Below are positions 6,880 through 63,674 of a DNA stretch of 64,000 nt, piece after piece; positions within the stretch are counted from its first letter, which is position 1, and each line of letters begins with the position of its first letter. The DNA lies in IMG/VR virus record IMGVR_UViG_3300028610_002065, positions 8,182 through 72,181 of that record; one strand, written 5' to 3'. The notes beneath the pieces are model-generated. The model saw only the letters and a list, made by a program, of their open reading frames with translations. It did no database searches and had not been told where the DNA came from. Made by a program: the position numbers and the translations under genes. The DNA is from a virus (Duplodnaviria > Caudoviricetes).

Positions 6880-8571
6880 TTAAGATCTATTAGTAGCAAG
6901 GAACTCATTTCTACGTTCTAATCGGTTTATTTCTTTAAGACGAAGATTCACTTCTACTCTTGAACAACCAGGCTGACTTATACCAAGTAGAGCATTTTCG
7001 CATTTTTCATTTTGAGCATCAAGAGCTCTTATTGTTTTCATATTTTCTCTAATTTCGACTCTGACTTCTTGGGATACTTCTTGAAATGGTTTTACTGGTG
7101 TTTGTGTTGTTTGTGTTACCACTTCCACACTGGTTTTAGCTGCTTCCTTCGCTGTTTCAATTACACTATCTACTGTTGCTCCATAAGTTAGATCAGCAAT
7201 TTTTTGAGCATTTCTTTCTGTTGCAGCTTTTTCAGGTAGTACAGATGCATCTGCTTTTGGTTTAGCTACATCACCTGCACGTTTGTTTGTTCTCATAAGT
7301 TTAACTTGGGCGGTTGTCTGCCAATTGTTTTGTCTTCTAAACCATATGTCTGTACTCCATAATATGTACTTCCCTTCTAAATCTGCATACTCAATAGTTT
7401 TTGGTTTAAATTTTACACATTCTCCAACTTTAATGAGATTTAAAACTGGTAGGTTTCTTTCAAGATCAATTGTTAAAGTTGATAAATCAGCTGTTCTTCT
7501 AGAAATTCTTGAGTTAAAAATAGTTTCATTTTTTTCATCCCCAGTATCTTGAATAAAATATCTTGTTCTTAATGCTGCAGAATCCACATCAATATTTTTA
7601 TTCTTATATATGAGACTATATTTTCCAGCTATATCTTTTAAATCTTGAGTAATTGTTTGTGATAGTGTATCTTTTGGTTTAATTATATGATTAATAGTTG
7701 ACCCTATTTTAGCAAATTTTGCATTACCGGCATAATCTGTATCAACTGTAGCATATGTATAGAAAGTGTTATCCTTCGAAACTTCATCTAATATTAAATC
7801 CCATATATTAATATCCATATCAGTTGCTATTTGATAAATTATAAAAGCTGGATTCTTTTGCATTTTAGCTGTCAAGTTTTTTATTTGTAATGTTTTGTCA
7901 TATTGACAAAAGACTGCTGGTACTCCATCAAAAAGACCAAATCTTTGATCTAGAAAACCGTCAAATGGATTTATAGCTGCTGAGTTATATTCCTTTATTA
8001 CTTTATAGAAAGTTGTTGGCGGAATACAAACTTGATCAATTGTATTCGAGTTTTGACCGTCTGAATCAAATTCTACTTTTGAAGCTCCTGCTGCTGAAGC
8101 AAGTGTGTTTATCATAGAGTTTAAATTGGTACCTAAGAAAACATCATTTACAACGGAGTTCATTATTTTATATGAATCTCTTACAACTGTATTAACTGTA
8201 TAATATCCCCTTTCTTTTTGTTTATTTTCACCCGTAGATATCTGATCTTTTTCATTTAACTGAAACTTTCCTTTTGTAAACATTAGATCTAGATCTATTC
8301 TTTCTCCTGGATACTGTTCTTCTCTTAATAAAGTTATTGCTAGTTTTATTGACGACCCACCGTACAACTGTTGAAGTATAATATCATTTGGATCTAATTC
8401 AAAAACTATGTCTACTGATTGGTATGCTGTTGTAAGGGATGAAATGAAACGAACCACGATTATATCTTGGGTGTAATCTAAATCATCAATGGTTATTTTC
8501 AAATCATAAGATCGAGTTGGGACAAATGTTCGGCCACCCTTATCTACATTTGGTGTTAGTTTTTCTGGCAT
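6880..8571 (-). CDS. Putative virion structural protein (baseplate hub-like)
   Basis: 563 aa, beta-rich; C-terminal GKYILWSTDIWF..WQTTAQVKL resembles ends of hub/gpD-like proteins; first gene after a terminator in the late block. Confidence 0.4.
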   Translation of the reverse strand: MPEKLTPNVDKGGRTFVPTRSYDLKITIDDLDYTQDIIVVRFISSLTTAYQSVDIVFELDPNDIILQQLYGGSSIKLAITLLREEQYPGERIDLDLMFTKGKFQLNEKDQISTGENKQKERGYYTVNTVVRDSYKIMNSVVNDVFLGTNLNSMINTLASAAGASKVEFDSDGQNSNTIDQVCIPPTTFYKVIKEYNSAAINPFDGFLDQRFGLFDGVPAVFCQYDKTLQIKNLTAKMQKNPAFIIYQIATDMDINIWDLILDEVSKDNTFYTYATVDTDYAGNAKFAKIGSTINHIIKPKDTLSQTITQDLKDIAGKYSLIYKNKNIDVDSAALRTRYFIQDTGDEKNETIFNSRISRRTADLSTLTIDLERNLPVLNLIKVGECVKFKPKTIEYADLEGKYILWSTDIWFRRQNNWQTTAQVKLMRTNKRAGDVAKPKADASVLPEKAATERNAQKIADLTYGATVDSVIETAKEAAKTSVEVVTQTTQTPVKPFQEVSQEVRVEIRENMKTIRALDAQNEKCENALLGISQPGCSRVEVNLRLKEINRLERRNEFLATNRS

Positions 8572-48587: not shown

Positions 48588-48794
48588 TTAATTTTCATCT
48601 TTAATCTCATATTTATCTCTGAGCTTTTTTGGTACCTTTATCCTACATAAGTTAGCAACTCGAATGAGCATTTCAGGAGTCGTATTTCTGAGAAATTCCT
48701 CGATCCTTCTCCTTAGCTTACGCATCATTAATTCATTCTGCTCAGTCATGAAAGTCTCCTCAAAGCACAAGGGAGAGATAGACAGGAGTTTCAT
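48588..48794 (-). CDS. Hypothetical protein
   Basis: Short basic protein, likely start MTEQ. Confidence 0.45.
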   Translation of the reverse strand: MKLLSISPLCFEETFMTEQNELMMRKLRRRIEEFLRNTTPEMLIRVANLCRIKVPKKLRDKYEIKDEN

Positions 48795-49722
48795 CTTCTT
48801 GTATCATATCTCCCCCACCACCTGAATCTGTTCGGAGAAGATTAGTTTTTAAAGACCCAGTTTGTCCCAACTCTTGTGAACTAATTTGAATGTCTTTCAA
48901 TAAAGGAAGAATCTCAGTTTGAATATGGTCTGAAAATTCGCTTAATATTTTTTCGACTTCATCAGGATCAGCTTCCTTTGGGAATTTTGGCAGGACCAGC
49001 GCTGATGGACGAATTTTTCCTAACATTTTTAAACGAATCATCTCTGCTCCATAGCATCCACGAATCAGATATTTCCAATATGCTTCCCAATGTTGAGGAG
49101 ATGGCATAATTTCAACACCAACCGGAACTCCAGCAAACATGATTATAGCACCAATCTGATTTTCGACTGGTTCGAAAGCTGCTGCAAAGTTTTCAAGAGA
49201 TTTCTTGATTGATGGTTCATCATAAAAGTCTCTGATGTGAGCTCGACTGGTACTTCCTGGGACAATACCCCTTAACCAGATGCTGATTCTATCCCATATT
49301 TTATCGTATTTTCTTCTCGATCTGATGGTTGGATCAAGCAATGCCTTTCTCAATTCAATTGGCAGAATATCTTCATCATTATCACTTTCACGAAGAAGAC
49401 CACCTTGACTTGATTCAACACAGCAGGCATTATCAAACTGGGACTGACTGCGGCTGGCAACAACACCAGAACCTGACATTGCATGATCTTGTGCACTTTT
49501 TCCACGAACCATATAGTTGGCCGGAACAATAGCTGGACGGGATTGATCCTTATTTTCAAATACCATTGTTCCATAACCTGCAGTTCGGGAGAAAGTTAAG
49601 TTTTCAGGATCAGCGATATCTCCTCTCGAAGGACCAACAATTGGAACAACTGTCATTTCATCCTCTGATTGAATTGGACCAACCCCAAGATTTGAAAATC
49701 CTAACGTTTCAAAAATCGACAT
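48760..49722 (-). CDS. ARPP-1/DUF6569-like protein
   Basis: LGVGPIQ...MTVVPI, AQDHA...ACCVESSQG, Q.GAIIMFAG..VGVEI; adjacent to a TROVE-like gene as is typical of the family. Confidence 0.6.
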   Translation of the reverse strand: MSIFETLGFSNLGVGPIQSEDEMTVVPIVGPSRGDIADPENLTFSRTAGYGTMVFENKDQSRPAIVPANYMVRGKSAQDHAMSGSGVVASRSQSQFDNACCVESSQGGLLRESDNDEDILPIELRKALLDPTIRSRRKYDKIWDRISIWLRGIVPGSTSRAHIRDFYDEPSIKKSLENFAAAFEPVENQIGAIIMFAGVPVGVEIMPSPQHWEAYWKYLIRGCYGAEMIRLKMLGKIRPSALVLPKFPKEADPDEVEKILSEFSDHIQTEILPLLKDIQISSQELGQTGSLKTNLLRTDSGGGGDMIQEDETPVYLSLVL

Positions 49723-49727
49723 CTGTT

Positions 49728-51308
49728 TTACCTCCCGATTAGGTTTTGAAATTTATTGACTAAAAGACCCTTCACAACATCTGTATTTTCGATCATTCGT
49801 GTGAAGATAAATTCAGTCTCCACATACCTGTAGTCGTTGAGCGGAATCGGTTTTACATCTGGAACGAGTGCTCTTGCTGTTCCCTGTCTTGCATCAGCAG
49901 AGAATACCGGATTGAAATGAATCAGGTTAAAGTCATGACCTGATTCTTTGAAATGTTTGTAGGTATGAGCAAACATACCTTTTATTGCATTTTCATATCC
50001 ATCCGATAGAACAACAATATTTTTCACTCCAGTTTTAACCGCCTTGGTTAATCCTGACCAAAGGTCTGTGTGATTCATTGGGATAATCATAGTGATCGGT
50101 TTATCAGTTGGAGTTGTAACAACCTTACCACCGACACGAATGACCTCTTTGACATTAGACAAAATAGATAACAGACAGAGAGAAGTCAAAAGAGGGTGTA
50201 ACTTTCTTTCATCACTTCCTTCCATAGATCGTGATGCGTCCACGATTACCACACACTCACCAATATCAAGTTTATCAGCTTTGGTGATTCTGTAGTCAAT
50301 GGCGTCTGAGATTTCATTCATATCCTCAGTATCAGTTTGAGATAGTTTGAAGTAGAGCAGTTTGAAGAGTTCATAAATATCATGATTTTTATAATTGATT
50401 TTTATCTTCTTTGCTCCTACTTTCTTACGAGCTGCAATAGTTTGAATTTCTTCTCTTTCTGATACTTTTGACTTATCATGAACTTCAGATAACTCAATGG
50501 GAACTTTATATTGATTGCGAAAACCGACTACGGTTCTCAGGGGCATTCCCTTCATGTTCTTTTTGAAGTCCTCGACATTTCCTTCTTCGGCTGCTTTTCG
50601 CAGTCTCCAGTAGTATCCGATTTTTGGAAAATAAGCTACAGCTTTTTCGGTTTTATATACTGGTTGTTTATTAAACAAATGCAAGAATATTGGAAATGCA
50701 TCTGGACTATAGCGACCTATCCATTTATCAAACAGCTTTTCATCGCCGTTCAATATTTTGTGTGTGGTCTGTGGGCCAAGAGCATGCCTTGTCAACTTAC
50801 GAAGTTTGTTCTTGAAGTTTACAGCTAACCCATCCAGTTCTTTGTTATCTCGACTAAAGATGAACTCAAGAATTAACTTTCTTGTTCTTGCATTGTTCAC
50901 TTTTGAAAATCCTTCACCTCCAGTCAACATCATTAGATTCTTGATAGCTCTAGCGAAACGATCTTGCGATACCTTATCAAGATTATATCTGAAGATGTCT
51001 TTCTCAAAGTCTTCTGGGAGTGCATCTGGAACTAAATCTTTGCCGGTTCCAGTCTGTGGGTTAGCTAATAACATGTGATTCATAGCTCCCTTTGAAAACC
51101 CTGTTCCGCCCAACAGCGTGACAAGACCAAACATCACTCTATCGAACTTGAATAGTTGTTGCCACATTTGCAGCACTTGTAAAAACTGCTCATCGGCACC
51201 TTCATAGAACGCACCTTTTGGTGCATACTGCATAATCCCTGAGTCAATTTGCACTGGCAATCTTCCTTCAGCCATGCGAACAGCATCTTGTAACTTCTTA
51301 CGAGCCAT
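49728..51308 (-). CDS. TROVE/Ro60-like helical protein with C-terminal vWA domain
   Basis: 526 aa; basic helical N-terminal two-thirds followed by vWA MIDAS (VIVDASRSM, T.L..GL, VVLSDGYEN). Same size and architecture as Ro60/Rsr. Confidence 0.6.
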   Translation of the reverse strand: MARKKLQDAVRMAEGRLPVQIDSGIMQYAPKGAFYEGADEQFLQVLQMWQQLFKFDRVMFGLVTLLGGTGFSKGAMNHMLLANPQTGTGKDLVPDALPEDFEKDIFRYNLDKVSQDRFARAIKNLMMLTGGEGFSKVNNARTRKLILEFIFSRDNKELDGLAVNFKNKLRKLTRHALGPQTTHKILNGDEKLFDKWIGRYSPDAFPIFLHLFNKQPVYKTEKAVAYFPKIGYYWRLRKAAEEGNVEDFKKNMKGMPLRTVVGFRNQYKVPIELSEVHDKSKVSEREEIQTIAARKKVGAKKIKINYKNHDIYELFKLLYFKLSQTDTEDMNEISDAIDYRITKADKLDIGECVVIVDASRSMEGSDERKLHPLLTSLCLLSILSNVKEVIRVGGKVVTTPTDKPITMIIPMNHTDLWSGLTKAVKTGVKNIVVLSDGYENAIKGMFAHTYKHFKESGHDFNLIHFNPVFSADARQGTARALVPDVKPIPLNDYRYVETEFIFTRMIENTDVVKGLLVNKFQNLIGR

Positions 51309-51499
51309 CTCCTATCTCCTTTTTAACGTGGGATAATCATATTCAATTTTTTGGATGAAAAATAAATAGAACTTGCCTTCATAAATTGGCGCTCGGGGGA
51401 GTAAAACGTAGCGTCAAGAAACCCGAAAGTATCTGAATCTACGTTTAGTCCCCCTCGCATAAAATGGTGCCCTTAAAAAGAGTGAAAGATGTAAGGGTT

Positions 51500-51574
51500 T
51501 GGTTGATACACAAGAATCGAACTTGCGACAACCGGCGTGATAGGCCGGAGCTCTTCCAACTGAGCTAATATCTG
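51500..51574 (-). tRNA. Degenerate tRNA-Asp-like element, anticodon ATC, nested in a longer stem
   Basis: TAGCTCAGTTGGAAGAGC D-arm, CCGGC-CTATCAC-GCCGG anticodon arm, GCAAG-TTCGATT-CTTGT T-arm, CCA; only 5 acceptor pairs. Confidence 0.55.
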
Positions 51575-52078
51575 AACTTTCATCGAGTCTCTTTTAATGG
51601 GCATAAAATGAACCAGAAGTAATATATATAATGTGTAGCGTTCCCCTCGTTGGAGGAGAACAGTCGTACAGGTTTTGACACCTTGGAGACCGACTAAGGT
51701 CAATGCTGAAATTATACAAAGTCTTCTGGTCAAAATGGAGCCGGCACATGGATAAACATGTGTATCGTCCGGCATAAAATAAAAGGGGGCCATACATCCG
51801 ATATGCAAGTCTTCTGCACGCGGTGACCCCTAAGATGGTGGAAGCCGTGATCCTTCATGCCGCGGCGCAATCAGGTGACTCCCATAAAATGATGGGGCGC
51901 GATATCCAAAAGACCAGTCCTGCAATTAATTAGCAGCGATAAGGTTAGTGGCACGCCCCATAAAATAGAACTAGAAGTAGAGAATGACTTGTGGGTTATG
52001 TATTTAGCAGTACAATCCTGAAAAGTCAAAAAGTCTTCTAGTTGAAAAAGTCGGGAGTGATAAACGTAATGTGATAGA

Positions 52079-52159
52079 CTTGCCAGTCTGTGGTAGGCAA
52101 GACGGGAATCGAACCCGCGTTCCATGGTCCCATATACCATTGCTGAAACCAACGTCAGC
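52079..52159 (-). tRNA. Rearranged tRNA-like domain (Pro-like sequence; canonical register reads ATG)
   Basis: D-arm, ATGGT-ATATGGG-ACCAT arm, GCGGG-TTCGATT-CCCGT T-arm, CTTGCCT-A-CCA; the complementary GGCAAG lies 3' of the CCA, not 5' of the D-arm. Confidence 0.5.
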
Positions 52160-52259
52160 GTTCTGAAATTACATCAAGTCTCCCGAGAAAATATAGAATA
52201 AAAATAAGTCTCTAATATAAAAATTTAAATTAAAGAACGTTAGAAATGTATCTTTCAAT

Positions 52260-52276
52260 AATTAATATATATAGAA
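52260..52276 (-). promoter_or_regulatory. Candidate early promoter, 17-bp exact repeat TTCTATATATATTAATT
   Basis: Identical to 63658-63674; both copies are intergenic and head a block of non-structural genes. Confidence 0.45.
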
Positions 52277-52294
52277 ACTGAATTTTTAAAATGA

Positions 52295-63657: not shown

Positions 63658-63674
63658 AATTAATATATATAGAA
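63658..63674 (-). promoter_or_regulatory. Second copy of the 17-bp repeat TTCTATATATATTAATT
   Basis: Exact match to 52260-52276. Confidence 0.45.

Follow-up and report, generated by a model that had tools for sequence, protein, structure and literature searches.

What does a phage do with a row of structured RNAs that share one scaffold and enclose very different interiors? The question is raised by a stretch of 64,000 nucleotides (nt) from a virus of the class Caudoviricetes (IMG/VR record IMGVR_UViG_3300028610_002065, positions 8,182 to 72,181), referred to here as the window. At 51309-52294 of the window, a gene-free gap of 987 nt separates an open reading frame (ORF) of 86 amino acids (aa) from one of 526 aa, and in this gap lie five units, each with two short helices and the bases ACU and UUCAG framing an interior of its own. 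These helices and their conserved bases, called the handle in what follows, are a real, uncatalogued RNA family that is strictly linked to a pair of genes, the first of which codes for a protein modelled as a Ro60. The units are probably Y-RNA-like RNAs, with a handle that docks the phage Ro60-like protein and an interior that serves as the effector-facing module, a reading drawn from sequence and from analogy with known Y RNAs.

The handle and its relatives

The original prediction for this locus was of a constant module for recognition by a protein, combined with a swappable cargo, and so of a new family of noncoding RNAs. The pattern ACT-N9-TTCAG occurs ten times in the window, compared to 2.57 +/- 1.44 times in shuffled sequence, and none of 100 shuffles reaches ten. 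Half of these copies are packed into about 750 nt, all on the minus strand and all in the one intergenic gap, at the places where they had been claimed (51433-51449, 51572-51588, 51706-51722, 52018-52034, and 52163-52179), and the 9-nt spacing between ACT and TTCAG is exact in each of the five. All five units fold on the scaffold that had been described, a helix P1 of 5-9 base pairs (bp), an internal loop with ACU, a second helix P2 of 6-8 bp, UUCAG, and then the interior, with minimum free energy (MFE) z-scores of -1.3 to -6.1. In the window, the 5' side of the loop consists of ACU and one further base and the 3' side of about 5 nt ending in A; P2 spans eight positions, and the G of UUCAG starts the first helix of the interior. 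All five units have the A-CU expected on the 3' strand where P1 meets the loop. The AC said to precede the 3' strand of P2 is found in four of the five but is not conserved across the family, in which this stretch is simply A-rich.

The strength of the case for the handle comes from the comparison with relatives and not from the pairing of single units. When the downstream sequence was shuffled, the real pairing score was matched in 1/1000 trials for unit H, 0/1000 for C, 6/1000 for B, 72/1000 for G, and 450/1000 for A, and units A and G, taken alone in strict register, pair no better than shuffled controls. A covariance model (R1), seeded with 14 short units in a structure-blind MAFFT alignment, matches the five units and nothing else in the window. 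When 842 kb of DNA from related phages was searched with model R2, 151 sites matched at E<=0.01. Of these, 150 lie upstream of the Ro60-like gene and on its strand, and no site is in the 15 control loci, which come from jumbo phages related by RNA polymerase (RNAP) and include clusters of transfer RNA (tRNA) genes. In the 14-unit alignment, 14 of the 15 handle pairs change on both sides, and 91.9% of the cells are paired, compared to 38-47% when slid; in 66 distinct matches, all 15 pairs do so, with 92.7% of cells paired against 39-51%. The helices that were noted to differ in sequence while keeping their pairing do covary in both P1 and P2, and the check by covariance model, run on related phage DNA, returned homologues and covariation alike.

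The consensus of 137 distinct units, from at least 46 viral contigs, runs from P1 (its 5' strand rich in purines) through A-C-U-N, P2, U-W-C-A-G, and the interior to the 3' strand of P2, a 3' loop of 5-6 nt made of A and pyrimidines, and the 3' strand of P1. P2 holds a near-invariant G-U on its 5' strand, paired to A-C (a G-C/U-A step). Counted over 136-137 units, the conserved bases are A (136/136), C (135/137), and U (128/137), then G (123) and U (135), and finally U (137/137), C (136), A (127), and G (132). The conservation is almost wholly on the 5' strand, the strand of Y RNAs that Ro60 is reported to contact chiefly (PMC4201824). Rfam 15 has no family that matches the handle; in the window it gives only a tRNA and a weak match resembling transfer-messenger RNA (tmRNA), at gathering thresholds and at E<=10, and a comparison of the DNA with GenBank phages picks up only the tRNA. 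The interiors differ freely from unit to unit, and the predicted design of a constant module around swappable cargo is supported.

The units, all on the minus strand, are as follows. Unit H (52051-52186) has a P1 of 7 bp (52186-52180 with 52057-52051), ACU at 52179-52177, a P2 of 8 bp, and UUCAG at 52167-52163; it scores 42.0 bits with R1 and 48.1 with R2. Unit G (51971-52041; P1 of 7 bp, ACU at 52034-52032, UUCAG at 52022-52018) scores 55.5 bits with R1. Unit C (51613-51729; ACU at 51722-51720, UUCAG at 51710-51706) has a P1 of 7 bp, which the MFE fold extends to 9, a z-score of -6.08, and scores of 49.4 and 52.7 bits with R1 and R2, respectively. Unit B (51476-51595; P1 of 7 bp, ACU at 51588-51586, UUCAG at 51576-51572) scores 34.5 and 45.4 bits. 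Unit A (51391-51458; ACU at 51449-51447, UUCAG at 51437-51433; z-score -4.83, R1 55.7 bits) does have the first helix attributed to it, but only as five G-C pairs in a shifted register, with an outer G-C clamp. A counterpart of unit A is found at L029:2981-3044 (related loci are designated by L and a number), and the changes in its P2 are compensatory.

Several other readings of the units were set aside. By eye, there is no tandem G-A of a K-turn, GAUG of a C/D box is seen in two units only, and the cores of hammerhead, twister, pistol, and hairpin ribozymes, as well as the archaeal bulge-helix-bulge, were dropped. The units are not repeats in sequence, as CRISPR repeats or ToxI-type repeats would be. 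ORFs over the array (111, 93, 67, and 45 aa) have no conserved frame, and the tblastn patches of 14-55 aa in them coincide with conserved minihelix RNAs. Pairing of ACUG with CAGU is possible in a distant clade, not in the clade of the window, and is incompatible with P2.

A Ro60-like gene and its partner downstream

The gene directly downstream of the array (49728-51308, minus strand) codes for the 526-aa protein, and its product is modelled as a ring of TROVE-type HEAT repeats followed by a C-terminal vWA domain with a DxSxS MIDAS motif, the architecture of the Ro60/TROVE family. The protein itself has no match in Pfam or PHROG, and Pfam TROVE (PF05731) is missed in it and in all of 48 aligned relatives (0/48). 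In the ESM Atlas, it is placed beside TROVE clusters, and phmmer finds 325 relatives among 1.8 billion representatives. The MIDAS residues (D357, S359, and S361) are invariant in the 48-sequence alignment, from which an AlphaFold (AF2) model with a predicted local distance difference test (pLDDT) score of 90 was obtained. Given this model, Foldseek places Ro60 structures in each of the first 13 ranks (E down to 4.5e-7). VIA-align gives a Z of 17.4 and a root-mean-square deviation of 4.2 over 416 residues to 2i91_B, spanning both the ring and the vWA domain; its top 10 rows are all Ro60, and the Ro60 rows stand well above those with the vWA domain only. The product of this gene can, on the strength of the model, be taken as a very diverged Ro60 that folds as Ro60 does, and it is the presumed binding partner of the handle.

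A scan of viral contigs with the single 526-aa sequence returned nothing, while a scan based on the alignment returned 80 loci. With tblastn, no cultured phage is matched, the sole hit being one uncultured phage of 462 kb. Cellular homologues occur in Sorangium, Planctomycetota, Thiomargarita, cyanobacteria, and Bacteroidota, and in their loci model R2 finds no handle, apart from two contigs that are probably viral (L147 and L150).

Across phage genomes, the handle goes with the gene. In the 80 loci, ACT-N9-TTCAG occurs 78 times upstream on the strand of the gene and 26 times elsewhere in more sequence; with a looser pattern that allows UACAG, the counts in 65 distinct loci are 165 and 12. A scan of all viral contigs with the DNA pattern only, ignoring proteins, found two new arrays (L121 and L144), and both adjoin a Ro60-like gene. 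Loci and records related through the RNAP gene served as negative controls, and no cluster of the motif was seen in loci L001-L009 and eight of the nine parent records. Five of the RNAP-related parent records, including one complete genome of 277 kb, gave no Ro60-like gene in a search with a protein profile. Five of the RNAP-related records were seen to carry tRNAs. GC-rich relatives that R2 scores poorly still have the ACU...UWCAG handle just upstream of the gene, and so the RNA seems to accompany nearly every member of the protein clade. The arrays hold four to eight units each, and some relatives have their units in a stretch of tRNA and tmRNA genes, at a distance of 1.5-3 kb from the Ro60-like gene. 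A public example, with a tRNA inside the handle, is LR756500.1 at about 106893-107019. The GC-rich relatives L035 and L044 have a region of stable RNAs 3.5 kb ahead of the Ro60-like gene, and in it tmRNA genes of the phage (L035:287-645 and L044:381-758, at 106 and 96 bits) were observed together with RNAs that resemble YrlA.

The second gene of the pair starts 6 nt after the first (48760-49722, minus strand) and codes for a 320-aa protein, ARPP-1, of Pfam family PF20208 (E 3.3e-22; 79.6 bits against a cut-off of 27). Conserved Cys and Gln residues are a described feature of ARPP (PMC9503650), and here C101, Q78, and Q106 are invariant in 30 sequences. A homologue comes immediately after the Ro60-like gene in 81 loci, at identities down to about 25%, and two of the fetched loci are exceptions; of the two new arrays, L144 also carries the gene and L121 ends before it could show. 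ARPP-1 is the third conserved part of the module. The predicted targets of ARPP are ribose or ADP-ribose moieties, and the paper in which it was defined does not list a Ro60-like gene neighborhood (PMC9503650). The window as a whole is AT-rich, the ORFs scanned around the array are all on the minus strand, and a 1359-aa RNAP beta-like protein is encoded, which marks the contig as being of the jumbo-phage type.

Interiors of the units and other elements of the array

The interiors were expected to range from about 20 to about 95 nt, and they measure 20 nt in unit A, 76 in B, 73 in C, 27 in G, and 92 in H. In unit B, the interior is a tRNA (51501-51574, minus strand), called by ARAGORN as Asp with anticodon AUC and scoring 45.4 bits with the Rfam tRNA model against a cut-off of 29; its cloverleaf is above the thresholds of both programs. 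It lacks the seven-pair acceptor and the free ends of an ordinary tRNA, having five clean pairs and two terminal mismatches; both of its ends continue into the handle, ACCA is encoded, and the first clean acceptor pair uses the G of UUCAG. In unit H, the interior is a tRNA-like domain: its T-arm is canonical, a loop with ACCA closes its acceptor, and an anticodon-like loop reads AUG. This domain gives the weak match (22 bits, Rfam, E<=10) to the tRNA-like domain of tmRNA. Units A and G enclose single hairpins and unit C several.

Across the family, the units fall into two length classes (about 60-100 nt and about 120-160 nt). At least 26 of the 137 distinct units contain a tRNA found by ARAGORN, with varied anticodons. 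The enclosed tRNA starts at the CAG of the handle or a few bases from it, and in the window's clade it mostly ends in encoded ACCA followed by an A-rich linker; several have defective acceptor stems of 5 bp or closed acceptors. The other interiors are permuted tRNA mimics, such as unit H and a unit of L034 in the order of YrlA, or short hairpins, and many units enclose only a hairpin of 16-34 nt. Another 40 tRNAs in loci with handle arrays have no handle at all.

Among the enclosed tRNAs, A34 in place of the usual G34 recurs, in Asp-AUC, His-AUG (also the loop of unit H), Tyr-AUA, and Cys-ACA; the sites are 51501-51574 and 52051-52186 (minus strand) in the window and L024:3704-3779, L029:3534-3606, and L081:2956-3028 elsewhere. 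Three of these four tRNAs belong to the queuosine family, which is the target of some anticodon nucleases. Anticodons UCA, which read opal codons, are seen in three units of a distant clade.

The array has further elements besides its handles. Upstream of unit H by about 75 nt is a promoter-like 14-mer, CTATATATATTAAT (52261-52274, minus strand), of which the window has only one other exact copy (63659-63672, minus strand). The motif lies 65-170 nt upstream of the first unit in eight loci (L024-L030 and L032), and a second copy stands inside the array of L028. It is likely a phage-specific promoter and the presumed start signal of the array transcript. Between units G and C, the folds show three structured RNAs that have no handle (51738-51962, minus strand). 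These are minihelices with G-C-rich terminal stems and CCA-like tails (ACCA, AUCA, and CUCCA), each preceded by AUUUUAUG; relatives are found at L024:3341-3532 and L029:2902-3242, and one of them hardly differs between the window, L024, and L029. The minihelices belong to the array, not to the handle family, and they look like acceptor-stem mimics. AUUUUAUG has five copies in about 500 nt of the array (51458-51966, minus strand) as opposed to 12 in the whole window, and the copies in the array always stand in the spacer just ahead of a unit or minihelix, where they may be a signal for processing or initiation. The spacers contain mostly A and U and little G, and the first 6 nt hold four or more U in 49 of 137; a U-tract terminator after each unit was rejected, the spacers being only A/U-rich, and a scan for terminators found none. 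The last unit is separated from the start codon of the Ro60-like gene by a leader of about 82-87 nt (51309-51390, minus strand), with a hairpin-forming element and a ribosome-binding site. Its sequence is kept at the same position in L024, L025, and L032 and can form two alternative hairpins, and the element may be a translational or autoregulatory site.

Probable kinship to Y RNAs and the readings that compete

How, then, do these RNAs compare to known ones? Y RNAs are modular, with a terminal stem that binds Ro60 and a domain that binds effectors, which in YrlA is a tRNA mimic (PMC4201824; bioRxiv 10.1101/312249). As in that class, the RNAs described here stand beside a gene for a protein modelled as a Ro60 (the array ends 82 nt from the gene, and the same is true in at least 46 contigs), and their paired ends form a stem interrupted by a loop with conserved bases, as folds, covariation, and consensus all attest. 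The closest likeness is to YrlA and YrlB, which accompany the Ro60-type protein Rsr. They too lie beside the gene of their protein; the two ends of the RNA pair into P1 and P2 around an asymmetric internal loop; the conserved positions are found on the 5' strand, where P1 meets the loop; and the second module is tRNA-like, with some relatives of the window units in the permuted order of YrlA (T-arm, closed acceptor, D-arm). Three relatives (in L034, L035, and L044) are matched by the YrlA model (RF02553) at 29-33 bits, below its gathering threshold of 69. The YrlA consensus aligns end to end with the L034 unit (31 bits), so that its stem, asymmetric loop, and second stem fall on P1, the loop, and P2 of the handle, and the Rsr motif of YrlA comes to stand at the P1/loop junction, where the handle has RGA-ACU. 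In the YrlA-like RNAs at L035:166-262 and L044:253-357, ACU and UCAG are contiguous (GACUUCAG). From these alignments, the handle resembles a Ro60-binding module and may be a diverged homologue, but the handle RNAs are not members of RF02553. Units A, C, and G have no recognizable T or D arm, unit B holds a tRNA in normal order, and unit H has a T-arm and a closed acceptor in an order unlike that of YrlA, which is met with only in L034.

There are differences from YrlA and YrlB as well. Here, ACU...GU...UWCAG replaces GNCGAAN0-1G; what the stem encloses varies freely, and can be as little as a 16-nt hairpin or as much as an entire tRNA in normal gene order; four to eight units, rather than one or two, make up an array; the protein has diverged beyond the reach of Pfam TROVE; and the fixed partner is ARPP-1 rather than an RtcB/RtcA operon or PNPase. 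Thermus phage phiLo also has a Ro60 homologue with stem-bulge-stem RNAs, Yrl1 and Yrl2, just upstream (PDB 9KOP and 9L5Y; PMC12135203), and the model of the 526-aa protein matches 9KOP with a Z of 14.4. The two phiLo RNAs, however, were picked by CGAA and depend on it, they have no tRNA interiors, and no ARPP is described for that phage (PMC12135203). In metazoan Y RNAs (Xenopus laevis, 1YVP), a terminal bulged stem likewise docks Ro60 while the remainder binds other factors, and the best structural matches of the 526-aa protein are metazoan-type Ro60 entries (the X. laevis 1YVP system); unlike the handle, these RNAs have the unrelated conserved helix GGUCCGA, no tRNA domain, single genes, and an oligo-U tail that binds La. 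In Escherichia coli phage Bas63, the Ro60-like protein gp130 is encoded beside tRNA-type genes and counters the Ppl defense, and the authors of the PhageMaP study suggest that some of the adjoining tRNA-like genes may be Y RNAs (PMC11482910), but no RNA motif or structure was defined, and gp130 is upstream of its tRNAs. No paper was found that describes the ACU...UWCAG handle or the pairing of Ro60 with ARPP, and the suggestion for Bas63 is the nearest precedent. The handle RNAs are best placed with the known Y RNA/YrlA kind, as a diverged branch of it that forms arrays, and not treated as unprecedented.

By analogy with these systems, one can propose how the module might work. The array would be made as one transcript from CTATATATATTAAT and cut in its A/U-rich spacers. 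The Ro60-like ring would then dock the handle, chiefly by its 5' strand, much as the terminal bulged stem of Y RNAs docks Ro60; the protein that recognizes the handle is, we infer, most likely the one encoded directly downstream. The interior would present a tRNA-shaped or other ligand to ARPP-1 or to a host factor that binds tRNA, and the biological role would be RNA surveillance or counter-defense centered on tRNA. A bolder version, which is unlikely as it stands, has the ring, ARPP-1, and the RNA array form a tRNA-centered counter-defense particle of the phage. The handle would load tRNAs or their mimics, including those with A34 (His-AUG, Asp-AUC, and Tyr-AUA), as decoys or spares against anticodon nucleases, or else as substrates from which ARPP-1 removes lesions linked to ribose, such as ADP-ribosylation.

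A number of observations weigh against docking of the handle by the Ro60-like protein. The Ro60-binding motif of bacterial Y RNAs is GNCGAAN0-1G (PMC4201824), and neither it nor CGAA is present in the 5' strands of the five window units. The YrlA model has no match in the window even at E<=10. A lone handle unit that the DNA-pattern scan turned up (L117:8285-8353, minus strand; 45 bits) has no Ro60-like gene within 8 kb and is the sole exception seen to the linkage. ARPP-1 co-occurs as strictly as the Ro60-like gene, and synteny therefore cannot tell which of the two proteins reads the handle. In units that bear a tRNA, the handle doubles as a paired leader and trailer, and it may have a role in processing.

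This last point leads to the alternative that fares best, although it is improbable. In it, the handle is a maturation cassette from which an endonuclease (of the RNase III, RNase E, or RNase P type, or a phage enzyme) frees the interior, and the Ro60-like gene only checks the products. Such a cassette would fit the start of the tRNA at the CAG or 1-2 nt from it, its end in encoded ACCA before an A-rich linker in the window's clade, the spacers with little G, and the finding that YrlA of Mycobacterium smegmatis is a substrate of RNase P (bioRxiv 10.1101/312249). However, the 40 ordinary tRNAs in the same loci have no handle, and maturation of a tRNA therefore does not need one. Many units hold nothing obvious to free in their 16-34-nt hairpins, several of the enclosed tRNAs have only 5-bp or closed acceptors, and the near-invariant bases suit a dedicated, sequence-specific reader over a general RNase.

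Little different in its chances, and also improbable, is the proposal that the handle is read not by the Ro60-like ring itself but by ARPP-1, by a complex of the two proteins only, or by a host protein. The faithful placing of ARPP-1 behind the Ro60-like gene and the missing Ro60 motif speak for it. As opposed to this, ARPP has no known RNA-binding activity and is predicted to target ribose or ADP-ribose (PMC9503650), whereas Ro60 proteins are established readers of stems built in a similar way.

The array could also be thought of as a cis-acting leader of the Ro60-like/ARPP-1 mRNA, with the units as autoregulatory sites or attenuators and not as trans-acting RNAs. The array and the genes are on the same strand, the sole promoter-like element is upstream of the whole array, and the 87-nt leader before the start codon does carry a conserved hairpin element. 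Yet four to eight units with individually conserved interiors and true tRNAs go far beyond any regulatory need, and in the relatives with distant units these stand among tRNA and tmRNA genes, which makes the proposal very unlikely. Last, small ribozymes occur next to phage tRNAs, and the near-invariant bases, about a dozen, cluster in two loops on either side of a short helix, but a self-cleaving core that excises the interior is highly improbable, since no Rfam ribozyme family matches even at E<=10, no hammerhead, twister, pistol, or hairpin core is seen by eye, and the strict link to the Ro60-like gene would be left unexplained.

Y-RNA-like RNAs docked on a Ro60-like ring are, then, the probable answer to the question that this array raises. 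Ro60/Y-RNA particles are conserved from bacteria to humans, and their logic is known from few cases, each with one or two RNAs per protein and one recognition motif. If the reading is true, ACU, the G-C/U-A step, and UWCAG would be a second well-defined recognition code, used by sets of four to eight RNAs in which a single handle is combined with interiors of many sorts, whole tRNAs among them. The system would be tied to an uncharacterized enzyme-like partner, ARPP-1, and should ARPP-1 and the ring prove to form a counter-defense particle, Ro60/Y-RNA machines would gain a new enzymatic arm. The family is common in huge uncultured phages, and its minimal units of about 60 nt suit work on binding and structure. 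The handle family would connect the biology of Ro60 with the contest between phages and their hosts over tRNAs.

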